From the NCBI GenBank assembly GCA_963766295.1, contig CAVXYW010000001.1, positions 4,364 through 68,363 of the forward strand: 64,000 nucleotides of DNA, in the 5' to 3' direction. This stretch comes from an uncultured Actinomycetes bacterium (GTDB lineage Bacteria > Actinomycetota > JAICYB01). This document shows, in pieces, positions 4,139 to 39,636 of the stretch (within the stretch, counting starts at the first letter, position 1; each line of letters starts with the position of its first letter). A program made the translations under genes and the position numbers. A model generated the notes under the pieces. The model made no database searches and was not told the origin of the DNA. It saw only the letters and a list, made by a program, of their open reading frames with translations.

Positions 4139-4935
4139 GCACAGCGGTTGCAAGTAAGCGCGTCTTCGACATCTCGCTCCCGGGAGCCTGGCGCTACTGG
4201 CACCGCAACGCGATGGTGTTCCGTCGGATCTGGCTGCTCGGGATCATGGCGTGGTTCGCCGAGCCCGTTATCTATCTGGTCGCGATGGGTTTGGGGCTCG
4301 GACGTTATCTGGAGCGCGTTCAGGGCGTCGAGTACATCGAGTTCATCGCTCCGGGGCTCCTCGCGGTCTCGACGATGTTCGGTGCAACGTTCTCGGTCAC
4401 GTGGGACGCCTGGTTCAAGATGGAACGCGTCGGCGTCTACCACGCCGCCATGAGCACCCCGCTTTCGGTCGAAGATGTCGCGCTCGGAGAGATCCTGTGG
4501 GGCGCCACCCGGGCAACGATCTACGGAAGCGCATTCATGGTCGTGGCTACGGCCTTCGGAGTGTTCCGATCGTGGTGGGGACTTCTGACTCTGCCGGCCA
4601 TCGCGCTCGTCGGGATCGTGTTCGCCATCACCGGACTCATTTACACCTACAAGATCCGTCGCGTCGACTACCTCGCCTACTACTGGACTCTGTTCATCAC
4701 ACCCATGTTCATGTTCGCCGGTGTGTTCTTCCCACTGGAACGGCTCCCCGACTGGGTGCGCGCGATCGCTTGGTTCATGCCGCTGTATCACGCGGCCAAT
4801 CTCATGCGGTCGTTGATGACCGAGGGAAATCCGGGCGCCGCATTGAGTTCCGCATATATGGCTCGCGGCGGTGGCATTGGTCCTGGTGTTCGTTCCGCTG
4901 CGCATGTTGCGCAAGCGGCTGGTCGGCTGACCTAG
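4135..4935 (+). CDS. ABC-2 type transporter permease (NodJ/DrrB-like); the last TM helix appears to lie in another frame
   Basis: TTG 4135 overlaps the ATPase stop. Five TM helices follow in frame 1. The expected sixth TM and basic tail (IWLAAVALVLVFVPLRMLRKRLVG*) are in frame 2 (stop 4928-4930). Frame 1 instead ends in a non-membrane tail, MARGGGIGPGVRSAAHVAQAAGRLT. Confidence 0.75.
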
Positions 4936-32366: not shown

Positions 32367-34169
32367 TCAGCCGGCGGCTTGGATCGGTCCGATGTGGCGT
32401 ACGGTCTCGGCTTCACCGGATTCTCTTGGCCGAGGCGCCGACGCACCCTCGACGATGCGCAGGACCTCCTCGAGTGAGGTGACGCCGCTGCGAACCTTCT
32501 CGAAGCCGTCCTCGCGAAGCGTCCGCATCCCCTGCGACAAGGCAAGACGGCGGATGTCGTCGGACGATCGCCTCTCGACCGCCATTAACTCGATCTCTTC
32601 GGTGACCGTCATGAGCTCGAAAAGAGCTAGACGTCCCCGGTAACCCGTACCGGAGCAGTGGTTGCAACCGACGGGTCTGTACAGCACTTGCCCATCGGTT
32701 ACACCAACATCGCCGGCGACCTCGGGTGGAGGAACGTATTCCTGCCGGCAGCGCAGACAGAGCTTGCGGATGAGCCGCTGGGCCAACACGCATTCCAGAG
32801 CCGATGCAACCAGGAATGGTTCGACGCCCATCTCGATCAATCGCGTGAGGGCCGACGGCGCATCGTTGGTGTGCAGCGTCGATAGAACGAGGTGACCGGT
32901 CATCGCGGCCTCGATCGCGATCTTTGCCGTTTCGGAGTCACGGATCTCACCGACCATTAGGACATCAGGGTCCGAGCGGAGGATCGACCGGAGTGCGGTG
33001 GCGAACGTCAGCTTGATCTTGGGATTCACATGGATCTGACTGACACCCGGCAAGCGGAACTCAACCGGATCCTCGACTGTGATGATCTTGCGAGACGTCT
33101 CGTTCACAACACTCAGCGTCGAGTAGAGCGTCGTCGACTTTCCCGATCCTGTAGGGCCGACAACGAGGATCGCGCCGTACGGCTTGCGGAAAGCCTGTTC
33201 GAATCGCTCGAGATCCTGTTCAAGGAAGCCAAGCTCGACCAAGCCGAGCAAGGAAGACGAGCGGTCGAGGATCCGGAGGATCACTTCCTCGCCCCACACA
33301 GAAGGCACCGTTGTTACACGGAGGTCGATGGGGTTTCCCGCAACAACAACGGTCATGCGGCCGTCCTGCGGGATCCGCTTCTCGGAGATGTCCAGCTCGG
33401 CCATGATCTTGATCCGCGATGCAACACCGGCATGTAGAGAGCGTGGGATGCGCATCGCTTCGTGAAGCACTCCGTCAAGACGGAAACGAACGCGCACATC
33501 GCGGTCTTGGGGCTCGATGTGCAAGTCGGAAGCGCGCTGGTGAACGGCCTGCGCAATCATCTGGTTGATCGCCCTAACTATGGGCGCGTCCTCGGCCGAG
33601 TCGTACTCGAGCTGATGCTGCTCTTCCTCCTCGGGAAGAGCCTCTTCGAGCAGAGACTCGGCGGAACGCTCGAGACCCCCCATCTGCATCCAGACGTCGT
33701 GGATGGCTCCCGCTTCGGCCAGCACGAGCTTCAGGTCGCGGCCGCTCACCGTTCGAAGGTCGTCGATCGCGATCACATTCGAGGGGTCGGAGATCGCAAC
33801 CACGAGCCACGGTCCATCGAAGTGGATCGGCAGCACACCATGACGGCGTGCAAGCGCTTCCGGAACCGAGTTGACCGCAGCGAGATCGATATCGCACTCG
33901 ACTAGGTCGACGAAGGGGAGCTCGAGCCCCCCTGGTACGCGCACGCTCGGGAGGGTCTCGCGAATGACCTGACCGACCGTGCGGCCGGTCTTTGCCGCTT
34001 GTCCTAGCAATGCAGCGGCTTGTTCCAAGGTTATGTGGCCGGCCTCGACCATCAGTTCGAGAGCCGGCAGCGAATGCCGTCGCGCTGAGTTACGGGCAGC
34101 CGTTTCCGTCATAACCGTTCCTACGGGGTTAGGACTCTTCTCGGCATCCCTTCGGGCGAAGCCCATCAC
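32367..34169 (-). CDS. GspE/PilB-family secretion ATPase (T2SSE_N domain, Walker A, tetracysteine motif)
   Basis: ARRHGVLPIHFDGPWLVVAISDPSNVIAIDDL, GPTGSGKSTTLYS, MVGEIRD and CLRCRQEY...CNHCSGTGYRGR are present. The start is 34169 or ATG 34112. Confidence 0.85.
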   Translation of the reverse strand: MMGFARRDAEKSPNPVGTVMTETAARNSARRHSLPALELMVEAGHITLEQAAALLGQAAKTGRTVGQVIRETLPSVRVPGGLELPFVDLVECDIDLAAVNSVPEALARRHGVLPIHFDGPWLVVAISDPSNVIAIDDLRTVSGRDLKLVLAEAGAIHDVWMQMGGLERSAESLLEEALPEEEEQHQLEYDSAEDAPIVRAINQMIAQAVHQRASDLHIEPQDRDVRVRFRLDGVLHEAMRIPRSLHAGVASRIKIMAELDISEKRIPQDGRMTVVVAGNPIDLRVTTVPSVWGEEVILRILDRSSSLLGLVELGFLEQDLERFEQAFRKPYGAILVVGPTGSGKSTTLYSTLSVVNETSRKIITVEDPVEFRLPGVSQIHVNPKIKLTFATALRSILRSDPDVLMVGEIRDSETAKIAIEAAMTGHLVLSTLHTNDAPSALTRLIEMGVEPFLVASALECVLAQRLIRKLCLRCRQEYVPPPEVAGDVGVTDGQVLYRPVGCNHCSGTGYRGRLALFELMTVTEEIELMAVERRSSDDIRRLALSQGMRTLREDGFEKVRSGVTSLEEVLRIVEGASAPRPRESGEAETVRHIGPIQAAG

Positions 34170-36608: not shown

Positions 36609-38003
36609 ATGAGCGGCGACCGTTTGAGTCCGCTTGATTCGTCTTTCCTTCATGTCGAGGACGACGTGAGCCACATGCACATAGCGTCTGTGGCCATCTT
36701 CGAAGGTCCGCAGCCGCCGTTCGCAGACGTCGTTTCGATGGTGCACGGAAAACTTCCTTTGGTACCGCGCTACAGACAGATCGTCTCCTTCGTGCCGTTC
36801 GATCTGGGGCGGCCGGTCTGGGTGGACGACCCGCACTTCAACATCGAGTACCACCTCCGACAAACGGCGCTGCCTCAACCGGGCGGTGAAGCAGAGCTTC
36901 GAAAGCTCGTTGGACGAGTCATGTCGCAGCAGCTCGATCGATCCAAACCTCTGTGGGAGATCTGGGTCGTCCAGGGTCTGGAGGACGGCCGTTGGGCGAT
37001 GATGTCGAAAACGCATCACTGCATGGTGGACGGTGTCTCTGGAACCGATCTTCTGGCGGTAACGCTCGATGTTTCGCCAGAGGGATCCGATCCGGTCCCC
37101 GACCACTGGCAGCCGCAAGCTCCGCCCAGTCGCGCAAGCCTGGCCGCTACGGCCATCTCCGAAAGGGCCCGCAGTCCTTACGAGCTGGTCCGAAGCCTTC
37201 GTAGCGCCACAAGATTGCCTCGCCAGACCTTCGGAGCGCTCACGGACATAGCCAAGGGATTGCGCGCCATGGCCGGGCTCATAACGCCGACCGAACCGTC
37301 GAGCCTGAACGGGCCCATCGGCCCTCATCGCCGGTGGGACTGGGCCTCGACGACCGTCGACGACATCAAACGGGTACGGAAGGCGACGGGCGCTACCTTC
37401 AACGATGTCGTTCTCGCGGCGGCAACCAGAGGGTTCCGCGACCTGCTCCTTTCGCGTGGAGAGTCGGTGGATCGGGCCGTCCGGACATTGGTTCCGGTAT
37501 CCGTGAGACCACGCGACACCTCCGGCCGTGCCGTCGGCGATGGCACGTTCGAGAACAAGGTGTCGGCGATGTTCGCAGAGCTTCCCGTCGGCATAGAAGA
37601 TCCGCTCGAGCGGCTGGGCAACATCTCGTTGCAGATGGCGGGACTGAAGGAGTCGAAGCAGGCCGTTGCCGGCGAAGCGCTCACCGCCTTGTCGGGCTTC
37701 GGTCCGCCGATGCTTCTCGCCCTCGGAACGAGGATCGCAACTCGCGTCCCTCAGCGGAACATCAACACCGTAACTACGAACGTGCCGGGCCCCCAGATGC
37801 CGTTGTATGCGGCCGGCCGGCGGATGCTCAAGGCCTATCCATACGTCCCGCTCGCCGGATCGGTGCGGGTCGGTGTCGCGATCTTCTCTTACGACGGCCA
37901 GGTCAACTTCGGCGTGACCGGCGATTACGACACGGCACCGGACATAGATGTCCTGTGCCGCGGAATCGAGGACGGAATGACGGAGCTTCTGAACGTCTCC
38001 TGA
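36609..38003 (+). CDS. wax ester synthase/diacylglycerol acyltransferase (WS/DGAT)
   Basis: LSPLDSSFLHVED is present, as is the catalytic HHCMVDGVSG (HHxxxDG) motif. The C-terminus reads NVPGPQMPLY. Confidence 0.9.
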   Translation: MSGDRLSPLDSSFLHVEDDVSHMHIASVAIFEGPQPPFADVVSMVHGKLPLVPRYRQIVSFVPFDLGRPVWVDDPHFNIEYHLRQTALPQPGGEAELRKLVGRVMSQQLDRSKPLWEIWVVQGLEDGRWAMMSKTHHCMVDGVSGTDLLAVTLDVSPEGSDPVPDHWQPQAPPSRASLAATAISERARSPYELVRSLRSATRLPRQTFGALTDIAKGLRAMAGLITPTEPSSLNGPIGPHRRWDWASTTVDDIKRVRKATGATFNDVVLAAATRGFRDLLLSRGESVDRAVRTLVPVSVRPRDTSGRAVGDGTFENKVSAMFAELPVGIEDPLERLGNISLQMAGLKESKQAVAGEALTALSGFGPPMLLALGTRIATRVPQRNINTVTTNVPGPQMPLYAAGRRMLKAYPYVPLAGSVRVGVAIFSYDGQVNFGVTGDYDTAPDIDVLCRGIEDGMTELLNVS

Positions 38004-38044
38004 GCGCCGTCACACAACTGCAATACGCAGGGACGTAATCCACA

Positions 38045-38329
38045 GGTTTTCCCTCTAGCGTTCCACAGCCAACCGGCTGTAAGTTTCGCGAGAACTCGAC
38101 GGAAGCACCTCGGATCCGGACCCGGAAACGGCAAAGGCGCAAGCCGGAGTCGCCAAGGGAAAGGCGATCAGATGGAACGCCCGTCGAGCCCGGTAGGACC
38201 TTCGGGACCTACCAGGCCGGTTAGCACGGAAGAAGGGGAAGGGACGCGAAGGAGGGCCGGACGAAGGAGCTTGCTCCCTAGTCTGCAATCCCTAGCGAAC
38301 CGGAAAACTTCGACCTAACTACCGACCAA
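38045..38329 (+). ncRNA. candidate structured non-coding RNA (family not recognised)
   Basis: No plausible ORF lies here. Stable tetraloop hairpins are ccg-GAAA-cgg (38122-38131), ggc-GCAA-gcc (38136-38145), ggtaggacc-UUCG-ggacctacc (38192-38213) and ggag-CUUG-ctcc (38266-38277). An 8-bp long-range helix pairs 38095-38102 with 38181-38188. A possible closing helix pairs 38045-38052 with 38302-38309. A terminator follows. Confidence 0.35.
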
Positions 38330-38367
38330 AGAGAAGGCCCCGGTGCAAACCGGGGTCTTTCTCTTTT
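38330..38367. terminator. bidirectional intrinsic terminator (serves purT and the plus-strand transcript)
   Basis: agagaaggccccgg-tgcaaa-ccggggtctttctct, followed by tttt on the plus strand and ccttctcttt on the minus strand. Confidence 0.65.
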
Positions 38368-38376
38368 GTGCGATTC

Positions 38377-39636
38377 CTAGATGACGCGCAGAGCAGCCGC
38401 GGCGGCCTTGGCGCGTTCTCGGGCGGTCTCGATGTCGGGTGCCGTGGCCAGAGCGACTCCCATGCGACGGTTGGGACGTGCATCAGGCTTGCCGAAGATC
38501 CGGACATCGACGCTCGGATGAACGGCCAGAGCGTCGGCCAGGCCTTCGACGATGGGCTTGGTGTCTTCCGCTTTCGCGAGGAGAACAGCGCTCGCACCGG
38601 GTGAATCGATCGGTATGTCCGGAGTCGGAACGGGCAGACCGAGGATCGCCCGGACATGAAGAGCGAATTCAGAGAGCGACTGCGTAGCCATCGTGACCAT
38701 TCCGGTGTCGTGGGGCCGAGGCGAGACTTCGCTGAACAGGACCTCCTCGCCTTGGACGAAGAGCTCCACACCGAAGATCCCGTAACCGCCCAGCGCATCG
38801 GTGATCCGGTTCGCGACTTCGCGTCCTCGAGCGAGAGCTTCGGGTGCCATCGGGTGCGGCTGCCAGCTCTCGCGGTAGTCGCCATCTATCTGTATGTGAC
38901 CGATCGGTGCACAAAAAGACGTGCCGCCGGAATGCCGCACCGTGAGTTGGGTGATCTCGTAATCAAAGGGAACGAAACCCTCGACGATCACGCGGGCGAC
39001 CTGAGTTCGTCCGGCTTGCTGGGCAAAGTTCCATGCGTCGGCCGCGCCATCCTTCTCCTTGACGACGCTCTGCCCCTTTCCGGACGAAGACATGACGGGC
39101 TTGACCACGCACGGCACACCTAGCTCCGCTACTGCCGATTCGACCTCCTCCAGCGAGTTGCAGAACCGGTACGGCGAGGTGGGAAGTCCGAGTTCCTCGG
39201 CTGCAAGCCGCCGGATGCCTTCTCGATCCATGGTCAGCCGCGCGGCTCGCGCCGTCGGGATCACGCGCAAGCCATCGGCTTCTAGTTTCACGAGCTCGTC
39301 GGTGGCGATGGCCTCGATCTCGGGAACGACAATCAGTTCGGCGCACGGCCGCGCCCTCTCTTCCTCTAGAACGGCGCGCAGCGCACCTGCATCGGTCATC
39401 GGACTGCAGACGTGGCTTCGATGCGCGACCTGCATAGCCGGCGCGTTCGCATACCGGTCGATAGCAACAACTTCACAACCCAGCCGCATCGCCTCGATGG
39501 CCACCTCGCGTCCGAGCTCGCCGCTGCCAAGCAGGACGATGCGAACGGCTTCGTCGGTGAGCGGAGGACCTATTCGCCTCTCCGGTGCGCTGCGGGGTGG
39601 TCGCACGCGCAAAGAGTAGGACGTCCTCGCGAGCAC
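38377..39636 (-). CDS. purT: formate-dependent phosphoribosylglycinamide formyltransferase (GAR transformylase 2)
   Basis: [41 protein letters not shown] and an ATP-grasp segment ([16 protein letters not shown]) are present. The exact start is uncertain. Confidence 0.85.

Follow-up and report, generated by a model that had tools for sequence, protein, structure and literature searches.

A lineage-restricted structured non-coding RNA gene in an uncultured class of Actinomycetota, with a putative array of DnaA-box-like sites upstream

Introduction

A non-coding gap of 373 nucleotides (nt; positions 38004-38376) separates a WS/DGAT gene from a convergent purT gene in a 64,000-nt stretch of DNA (the window) from an uncultured Actinomycetes bacterium (contig CAVXYW010000001.1, assembly GCA_963766295.1). 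It raises the question of whether a gap of this length, in otherwise dense DNA, holds a gene of its own or belongs to one of its neighbours. A first-pass annotation, made from the sequence alone, had described it as a candidate structured RNA, either a stand-alone small RNA (sRNA) of ∼290 nt on the plus strand or a structured 3′ untranslated region (UTR) of the WS/DGAT gene; the coordinates and Pfam domains of the two flanking genes agree with the limits that it gave to the gap.

Here we show that an independent gene is present in the gap and specifies a highly structured non-coding RNA, whose family is not in Rfam and is confined, within reach of searches by sequence and structure, to one uncultured class of Actinomycetota. 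We discuss the domain structure of this RNA, the conserved DNA block that precedes it, its relation to known bacterial RNAs and the function that these features suggest.

An independent and conserved gene

The GTDB family, order and class of the window's genome comprise the same ten species, all of them known as metagenome-assembled genomes (MAGs) labelled ‘Actinomycetota bacterium’ or ‘Actinomycetes bacterium’. A DNA search of these relatives found a unit of ∼330 bp in 8/10 class genomes, distributed over six genera, and a metagenome scan recovered it complete from three contigs (L048, L050 and L062), so that the homologue set comprises 11 sequences. The unit is made up of a conserved upstream block, a body of ∼275 nt and an intrinsic terminator with an invariant stem, and is single-copy in the window's genome. 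No copy was detectable in the class genomes G003 and G004, where a search for the block with up to three mismatches returned chance matches in coding sequence only.

The genes around the unit vary with the locus. WS/DGAT and purT flank it in the window's genus, and this pair was found in no other; elsewhere the neighbour is a divergent NTF2-like gene (G009 and G005), a downstream rhodanese gene (G006 and G008) or trpS (G007). These differing neighbours rule out a 3′ UTR or a leader. Furthermore, indels of 1 and 2 nt among the near-identical copies of the window, L062 and G001 break every reading frame, and the region is therefore not coding. A WS/DGAT 3′ UTR, a cis-regulatory leader or a small-protein gene would fit a region that follows WS/DGAT immediately and in the same orientation, as well as a 48-codon open reading frame (ORF) at 38172-38318 inside the gap. 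WS/DGAT is a neighbour in one genus only, however, the unit ends in a terminator ahead of convergent or unrelated genes, and the ORFs of the gap, all broken by the indels, have no Pfam match. Explanations of this kind are therefore extremely improbable, and the 3′ UTR proposed in the first-pass annotation has to be given up.

Two covariance models, R1 (hairpin P2 plus the GA block) and R2 (the rod), were searched against 401 genomes across the phylum Actinomycetota and matched just the eight class members. Weak matches of R1 outside the class were rejected, as they fell on a terminator followed by a Shine-Dalgarno (SD) sequence and start codon, or on coding sequence, and so was the single outside match of R2 (G353), which lies within an ORF. 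A search of 37500-38900 with Rfam cmscan at E≤10 placed miRNA and sRNA models on the terminator hairpin only, all far below their gathering scores, and Rfam 15 at gathering thresholds found two tRNAs only in the whole window. This agrees with the earlier remark that the region could not be matched to the consensus features of RNase P RNA, tmRNA, SRP RNA, 6S/Ms1 RNA or the cobalamin, TPP and ydaO elements.

The stand-alone plus-strand sRNA of the first-pass annotation is thus upheld by varied gene contexts, covarying helices, UUCG and GNRA loops confined to the plus strand, an upstream block of its own and a terminator specific to the plus strand. The annotation had tied its candidate to conservation in related genomes and to covariation; both were found, and the searches detected no member of the family beyond the class.

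Secondary structure of the RNA

When the 11 homologues are folded independently, they show one architecture, in which a 5′ domain, the hairpin P2, a rod and the terminator follow one another in series (Table 1). Two alignments were used to examine it, A3 covering P1, P2 and the terminator, and A4 covering the rod. In A3, 86.5% of cells are paired, against 32-58% with partners slid, and the observed covariation score was reached by 0/500 shuffles; the corresponding values for A4 are 83.5%, 28-49% and again 0/500. Both sides have changed in 6/9 pairs of P1, 4/9 pairs of P2 and 11/26 pairs of the rod, counts that were made on structures derived from the same sequences.

Helix P1, which closes the 5′ domain, was present in 11/11 independent minimum-energy folds. 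It had been described earlier as an 8-bp long-range helix (38095-38102 with 38181-38188), a description that holds, and it covaries. Its interior is variable. The window's genus has three hairpins there (38122-38131, GAAA loop; 38136-38145, GCAA loop; 38149-38168, GUCGCC...GGCGAU), whereas most other genera have a single GNRA-capped hairpin. The three hairpins are present as first annotated, but the set is an insertion specific to the window's genus.

The apex of P2 reads CCUUCGGG in nine of the homologues and CCCUCGGG in the other two. This UUCG hairpin had also been noticed before and is indeed present, but the 9-bp stem then assigned to it is in fact made of 8 pairs and an A.A mismatch. The invariant CCUUCG at the apex (38192-38213) could also pair without a mismatch to CGAAGG of the GA block (38246-38253), a pairing that RNAalifold proposed. 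We did not adopt it because the local stem of the UUCG hairpin covaries; the complementarity could reflect a structural switch or be a coincidence.

GGCCGG (38215-38220) and CCGACC (38322-38327) pair to close the rod, whose column pairs recur across the independent folds of the homologues. The GA block forms its 5′ strand, opposite the conserved 3′ strand; between the two are small internal loops rich in purines, the largest of which have ∼4-7 nt per strand. The apical hairpin with its CUUG loop was found exactly where it had been predicted (38266-38277), and both sides have changed in three of its four pairs (helix 7). Its sequence differs between genera, and the branch formed by G008 and L048 lacks a large portion of the rod's apical region.

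The GA block lies within a purine tract (38228-38269) in which the first-pass annotation saw four SD-like GAAGG motifs that might titrate an RNA-binding factor or anti-SD sequences. The four motifs are present; the tract is not a free SD-like tail, however, but the predicted 5′ strand of the rod in every homologue, and the titration is not borne out for a tract predicted to be paired with a conserved strand. The same evidence bears on a broader alternative, in which the RNA works in trans, as a base-pairing sRNA or a sponge, and its GA block pairs with C/U-rich targets such as the 16S anti-SD, C-rich loops of sRNAs or mRNA leaders. No other stretch of the RNA is as conserved as the GA block, an SD-like AAGGAGG core occurs in 7/11 homologues, and the resemblance was illustrated by model R1, which cross-matched genuine terminator-plus-SD regions. 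Against this, the core is AAGGAAA, AAGGCGG or GAGACGG in the other four homologues, the block is predicted to be paired in all of them, few conserved stretches are single-stranded, and no C-rich sRNA of the 6C type was detected in the genome. We consider base pairing in trans to be rather unlikely.

Several further pairings were considered and set aside. A pairing of the upstream block with the GA block, also suggested by RNAalifold, involves two invariant sides and is disrupted in G007 as well as L048; moreover, copies of the upstream block are found elsewhere without the RNA body. A 5′ hairpin CCACAGCC...GGCUGU (38063-38081) is not conserved and lies upstream of the putative start site. The closing helix once proposed between 38045-38052 and 38302-38309 is intact in the window's genus only and decays in the others, and its 5′ half falls within the promoter block. 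Nor does the direct repeat CCCT(C)TAGCG qualify as a feature of the RNA: it is specific to the genus, and its second site reads CCCGAACGAACC in other genera. The segment 38045-38064, which formed the outermost 5′ part of the RNA as first drawn, is most likely promoter DNA.

Strand and terminator

The folding energy of the region lies below that of dinucleotide shuffles on either strand (z = -3.8 for the plus and -4.4 for the minus strand). Values so similar are uninformative on strand when taken alone. The plus strand is favoured for other reasons. The UUCG and GNRA loops occur on it alone, as had been pointed out before; in other genera a U-tract follows the terminator on the plus strand only; and cells with G.U pairs outnumber those with A.C (50 against 33). 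The stem of the terminator, GAAGGCCCCGG...CCGGGG(C/U)CUU, is invariant across the class, and the G.U pairs that it contains likewise favour the plus strand. Its description as a bidirectional terminator applies to the window's genus but not to the others, with their U-tract on one strand.

Table 1. Positions of the RNA unit, its predicted parts and the adjoining genes in the window
Feature	Position	Strand	Remarks
WS/DGAT	36609-38003	+	Pfam PF03007, PF06974; outside the RNA unit; upstream neighbour in the window's genus only
Conserved upstream block	38025-38070	+	one-strand row of DnaA-box-like 9-mers, 11-12 bp spacing
Box 0	38025-38033	+	degenerate in the window's genus
Box TAATCCACA	38036-38044	+	DnaA-box-like 9-mer
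Box TTTTCCCTC	38047-38055	+	DnaA-box-like 9-mer
Putative -35 element TAGCGT	38055-38060	+	weak; inside the upstream block
Box CGTTCCACA	38059-38067	+	DnaA-box-like 9-mer; last box
Putative -10 hexamer TAAGTT	38080-38085	+	TANNNT type
Putative transcription start, G	38092	+	7 nt past the -10 hexamer; column 34 of A3, invariant
5′ domain	38095-38188	+	P1 closes a variable interior
Helix P1	38095-38102 with 38181-38188	+	CUCGACGG with CCGUCGAG
Hairpin P2	38192-38213	+	apex C(UUCG)G
Domain III (rod)	38215-38327	+	113-nt imperfect hairpin; purine-rich internal loops
GA block	38232-38255	+	GAAGGGGAAGGGACGCGAAGGAGG; 5′ strand of the rod
Apical hairpin of the rod	38266-38277	+	GGAG-CUUG-CUCC; helix 7
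3′ strand of the rod	38286-38319	+	CAAUCCCUAGCGAACCGGAAAACUUCGACCUAAC in the window; class consensus CCCGAACGAACCGAAAACUUCGACCUA
Intrinsic terminator	38328-38367	+	core stem GAAGGCCCCGG / CCGGGGUCUUU at 38333-38360, then U-tract
purT	38377-39636	-	Pfam PF02222, PF21244; convergent downstream neighbour, outside the RNA unit

The conserved upstream block

Within the unit, conservation is highest in a stretch of DNA that precedes the RNA body. This block has the consensus AAATCCACAGGTT(G/T)TCCCTCTAGCGTTCCACAGG at 38033-38070, is nearly invariant in the 11 homologues and is single-copy in the window's genome. It contains four 9-mers, all on the plus strand, starting at aligned positions 28, 39, 50 and 62 (spacing 11, 11 and 12 bp), whose forms across the homologues are (A/G)AAGTCACA, (T/A)AATCCACA, TT(G/T)TCCCTC and C(G/T)(T/A)TCCACA. 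The consensus of the DnaA box is TT(A/G)TCCACA. In each homologue, one or two boxes whose positions are fixed, such as TAATCCACA and CTATCCACA, come within two mismatches of it, and the others are weaker.

Similar sequences are found at replication genes of the same organisms. The conserved motifs GTTTCCACAC, TGTGGA and TGTGGATAA (TTATCCACAGG on the opposite strand) stand upstream of dnaA in 10/10 class genomes, and the dnaA-dnaN spacer (oriC) has pairs of the form TCCACA-NN-TTGTC, with the same 2-nt spacing as in the block's ATCCACAGGTTGTCC. The window's genome has just three places where at least three TCCACA fall within 120 bp: immediately upstream of dnaA, the spacer between rplI and dnaB, and a single tandem repeat of 9 bp. 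The rplI-dnaB spacer also contains a 12-mer, GTAATCCACAGG, that is identical to part of the block upstream of the RNA gene. Finally, two high-GC metagenome contigs (L058 and L061) have the block but not the RNA body, and both keep the distance to the downstream CCACAGG.

The block was at first suspected to be part of the RNA, an idea that was dropped in view of its occurrence without the RNA body, its resolution into boxes and its likeness to the boxes of replication genes. The phasing of the 9-mers, together with the isolated occurrences and the like boxes at replication genes, argues for a role at the level of DNA, and the block is probably, judging by its sequence, a phased array of DnaA-box-like sites.

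The surroundings of these related sequences are of some interest in themselves. In the rplI-dnaB spacer (C1:346440-346500) three TCCACA boxes, GAGTCCACAAG, TAATCCACAGG and GCGTCCACAAG, stand upstream of dnaB, which points to control of dnaB by DnaA in this class. The tandem repeat, (AAGGTCCAC) x3 at C2:1149455-1149473 (minus strand), is the sole triple cluster of TCCACA away from dnaA and dnaB. A look-alike module, GAAATCCACAGCCTTATTCACAGGTGTTCCCCTTGCGCGTCCACAGGCAGTTGCTGT, at C2:351226-351300 (minus strand) precedes an ORF for a membrane protein of ∼90 amino acids that has no Pfam match, and it shares TCCCCTTGCGCGTCCACA with the rplI-dnaB spacer.

In L058 (Ga0126307_10000597, 4740-4890), a 30-nt version of the block, GTCACAGGTTGTCCCTCTAGCTCCCCACAGG, precedes by 35 nt a dnaB gene with an intein (PF00772, PF14890 and LAGLIDADG domains), and two TGTCCACA DnaA boxes, 11 bp apart, are found ∼110 nt further upstream of it. 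In L061 (Ga0070708_100091627, minus strand, ∼590-900 of the reverse complement) the block is situated between the 3′ end of nrdR (ATP-cone) and nrdJ, an intein-containing gene for a class II ribonucleotide reductase; it adjoins a CTGTGGACAG box, and a consensus TTGACA/TATGGT promoter with a palindrome resembling an NrdR box lies downstream.

Pattern matches to the block in public collections also came from Gemmatimonadota, Bathyarchaeota, cyanobacteria and Bacteroidota. These are probably due to chance, the match being extended in L058 and L061 only. Among them are three sequences from Gemmatimonadota MAGs and a metagenome contig (L012, L021 and L063) in which TCCACAGGTTGTCCCTCTAGCTACC, a 22-25 nt match to the block that lacks the second CCACAGG and may be fortuitous, stands ∼90 nt upstream of a membrane-protein gene. 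In L059 (Ga0055478_10013643, 432-449), ACAGGTTGTCCCTCTAGCGTT is found 45 nt upstream of a gene for an extracytoplasmic function (ECF) sigma factor, either by chance or as part of a related promoter. A literature search for TTGTCCACA returned unrelated primer sequences only.

If the block acts as DNA, the functional element might be the DNA itself, namely a DnaA-titrating or recharging locus (of the datA, DARS or box-cluster kind) or a secondary origin, transcription being incidental or modulatory. The resemblance of the phased array to oriC and to the dnaA promoter of the same genomes would suit this idea, as would the blocks beside dnaB and nrdJ that lack an RNA body. A site that acts purely as DNA would not explain, however, why the 275 nt downstream are conserved, why three helices show compensatory changes, or why there are tetraloops on one strand only and a terminator. 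Moreover, the locus has no AT-rich unwinding element, and its variable gene context means that it is not a chromosomal origin. A function confined to the DNA is therefore quite improbable.

Promoter and extent of the transcript

Conservation falls for ∼12 nt downstream of the block and then resumes, over a sequence that may be a -10 hexamer of the TANNNT type (Table 1). Its first two positions, T and A (columns 22 and 23 of A3), are invariant, and the T at column 27 is present in 9/11 sequences. A start at the invariant G that follows would agree with the folds of four homologues, in which the first helix (P1) begins exactly at the equivalent of G38092. On this basis we infer a plus-strand transcript of ∼275 nt, running from ∼38092 to the U-tract near 38367. 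The proposed -35 element is weak, and a strict scan for the sigma-70 consensus consequently reports no promoter. The last box of the array lies over the -35/spacer region of this putative promoter.

An alternative promoter, in which TAGCGT would serve as the -10 element and transcription would begin near 38066, fits less well, because the sequence is TAGCG(C/A) without the final T in several homologues and because the additional leader would have no conserved structure.

Comparison with known RNAs and regulatory systems

The RNA does not appear to be a diverged copy of a housekeeping RNA, as canonical RNase P RNA (C2:1508672-1509066), signal recognition particle (SRP) RNA (C1:472455-472554) and transfer-messenger RNA (tmRNA; C2:931335-931683) are present in the genome. 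For 6S RNA, in contrast, the model RF00013 matched neither the region nor the whole genome, while control genomes were matched, and 6C RNA had no match anywhere in the genome. 6S RNA binds the RNA polymerase holoenzyme and serves as a template for product RNA, whereas Ms1 binds the core enzyme. 6S RNA is a single rod of ∼180-200 nt, with its ends paired in a closing stem and a large central bubble.

Ms1 is an RNA of ∼300 nt whose sigma-A-like promoter is conserved and whose gene ends in an intrinsic terminator. It folds into one long hairpin, opened by a central bubble, and has a short hairpin near either end; its gene lies near the origin, in synteny with a HAD-IB hydrolase gene and 6C RNA (PMC4191392, PMC9130861, PMC6582537). 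Homologues of Ms1 are known to escape sequence and structure searches, and the Rfam model is said to find it in close relatives of mycobacteria only (PMC9130861).

The present RNA shares a number of traits with the Ms1 group (Ms1 of M. smegmatis, MTS2823 of M. tuberculosis and scr3559 of S. coelicolor). These include its occurrence in Actinomycetota, a size within reach of their ∼230-300 nt, a single-gene unit with a conserved promoter or upstream block and an intrinsic terminator, a long imperfect hairpin that is most conserved in its internal-loop region, a genome without canonical 6S RNA and transcription toward dnaA. The last was observed in G000 and G001, at distances of 339 kb and 367 kb, or ∼12% of the genome. 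A true homologue of Ms1 or 6S RNA that has diverged past recognition, and thus a known family, would account for the likeness in size, promoter and terminator to the ∼300-nt Ms1 (PMC4191392), for the orientation and for the genome without a 6S match, and its concealment would accord with the elusiveness of Ms1 homologues (PMC9130861).

The differences are nevertheless considerable. The RNA has no detectable sequence or covariance-model similarity to Ms1, and no cmscan match to it even at E≤10; R1 and R2 matched nothing in ∼390 other Actinomycetota genomes. No HAD-IB hydrolase gene was found among the 12 large ORFs within ∼8 kb, nor among the flanking ORFs scanned at other loci, and no 6C RNA is nearby. 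The gene is 340-370 kb from dnaA rather than close to it. A DnaA-box-like array stands in place of the consensus sigma-A promoter of Ms1. Instead of one long hairpin with a central bubble, the RNA has three serial hairpin domains: the 113-nt rod and the terminator fit the layout of Ms1 loosely, and the 95-nt 5′ domain and the UUCG hairpin are additional. Likewise, it could resemble 6S RNA in being an abundant, protein-binding and rod-containing regulatory RNA, but its 5′ and 3′ ends do not pair with each other, it lacks the large bubble and it is ∼90 nt longer. Without shared synteny, similarity in sequence or model, or the single-hairpin fold, it is not filed under Ms1 or 6S RNA, and descent from either is unlikely. 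By analogy, it may still work as they do.

Other systems offer partial parallels. RNA sponges of the CsrB/RsmZ type are no match, as the apical loops here are UUCG, GNRA, CUUG and the like, and the GGA triplets lie in the rod, in its stem or internal-loop strand. The lineage-restricted orphan RNAs raiA, OLE, ROOL, GOLLD and HEARO are similarly conserved, highly folded and provided with tetraloops; none of their Rfam models matches, and OLE, ROOL and GOLLD are much larger. The sRNA CcnA of Caulobacter crescentus is, as is proposed here for the present RNA, one whose synthesis is tied to the replication and cell-cycle machinery (PMC8959179). CcnA is encoded at the origin, depends on CtrA and base-pairs with the ctrA and gcrA mRNAs (PMC8959179), whereas the present gene is 340 kb from dnaA and its RNA is unrelated in sequence and has few free conserved single strands.

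DnaA-regulated promoters and box clusters outside oriC include the autoregulated dnaA promoter, nrd promoters and clusters in B. subtilis. The upstream block resembles these in its phased TT(A/G)TCCACA-like 9-mers, which lie in one orientation over a promoter and are also found at dnaA, oriC and dnaB; it differs in that the downstream product is a structured non-coding RNA. The searchable literature on sRNAs driven by DnaA boxes yielded CcnA only, and no such arrangement was described in it.

Possible function

On balance, we favour the explanation that the locus is a new structured RNA gene with a promoter embedded in DnaA boxes, and that its product is a protein-binding regulator, perhaps of the 6S or Ms1 kind. 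The promoter would lie within the one-strand array of DnaA-box-like sites, with one box over its -35/spacer region, and occupancy of the array by DnaA would set the level of transcription. Repression would be the more likely effect, given the position of this box, and activation would be possible. The RNA itself would act through protein binding, as a decoy or scaffold, rather than by antisense pairing, because nearly every conserved nucleotide falls within a helix or an internal loop of the predicted fold and not in a free single strand. Its most plausible partner would be RNA polymerase, by analogy with 6S RNA and Ms1, since the genome has RNase P RNA, SRP RNA and tmRNA but no detectable 6S RNA.

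A number of observations weigh against this explanation. The central box, TT(G/T)TCCCTC, departs from the DnaA consensus at three core positions, the DnaA boxes do not account for the invariant CTCTAGC in the block, and the window's genome has 26 cases of two TCCACA within 36 bp, so that such pairs are by no means rare. The main alternative is an MtrA-like regulator of the OmpR family, which recognises direct repeats of the GTCACAGG type and could occupy the array instead of DnaA. Expression, start site and abundance are all predictions from sequence, and the poor -35 element and the negative sigma-70 scan have to be counted here as well. The structural evidence comes from 11 fairly close relatives (DnaA identity across the class is 73-95%), so that most pairs of the rod are invariant and uninformative either way. 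Two class genomes, G003 and G004, lack a detectable copy of the gene. As regards a function like that of Ms1 or 6S RNA, the lack of HAD-IB/6C synteny and the three serial domains, in place of a single rod with a large bubble, also speak against it.

If the RNA is real and expressed, it would represent a new family of structured regulatory RNAs in a so far uncultured class of soil Actinomycetota, a lineage without the nearly universal 6S RNA. A phased array of DnaA boxes that drives a non-coding RNA would, if true, tie the replication initiator directly to a riboregulator. One may go further and suppose that the arrangement is widespread and undescribed, phased sub-consensus DnaA boxes gating lineage-specific, highly structured RNAs that signal the status of replication initiation to the machinery of transcription or replication, perhaps, in a lineage without 6S RNA, by serving as a 6S/Ms1-type decoy of RNA polymerase; this is a tentative idea, possible but doubtful. 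The order of parts, a DnaA-box array, then a structured RNA, then a terminator, provides a rule by which similar RNAs may be searched for. As the 70-bp promoter and the 275-nt RNA can be synthesised, the locus is a testable object even though the organism is uncultured.

Neighbouring genes and further observations

Two observations concern sequences outside the RNA unit. In G001, dnaA aligns in two pieces (L084/L085; G001:C1:2177051-2178410) with three in-frame TGA codons; this genome is a long-read MAG, 75% complete, and the split is probably due to a frameshift or an assembly error. In the window, 4 kb upstream of the gap, a gene on the minus strand (32367-34169) encodes a PilB/GspE-type ATPase of type II/IV secretion that carries an MshEN domain, and it adjoins sugar-nucleotide genes for a UDP-glucose dehydrogenase and an epimerase.

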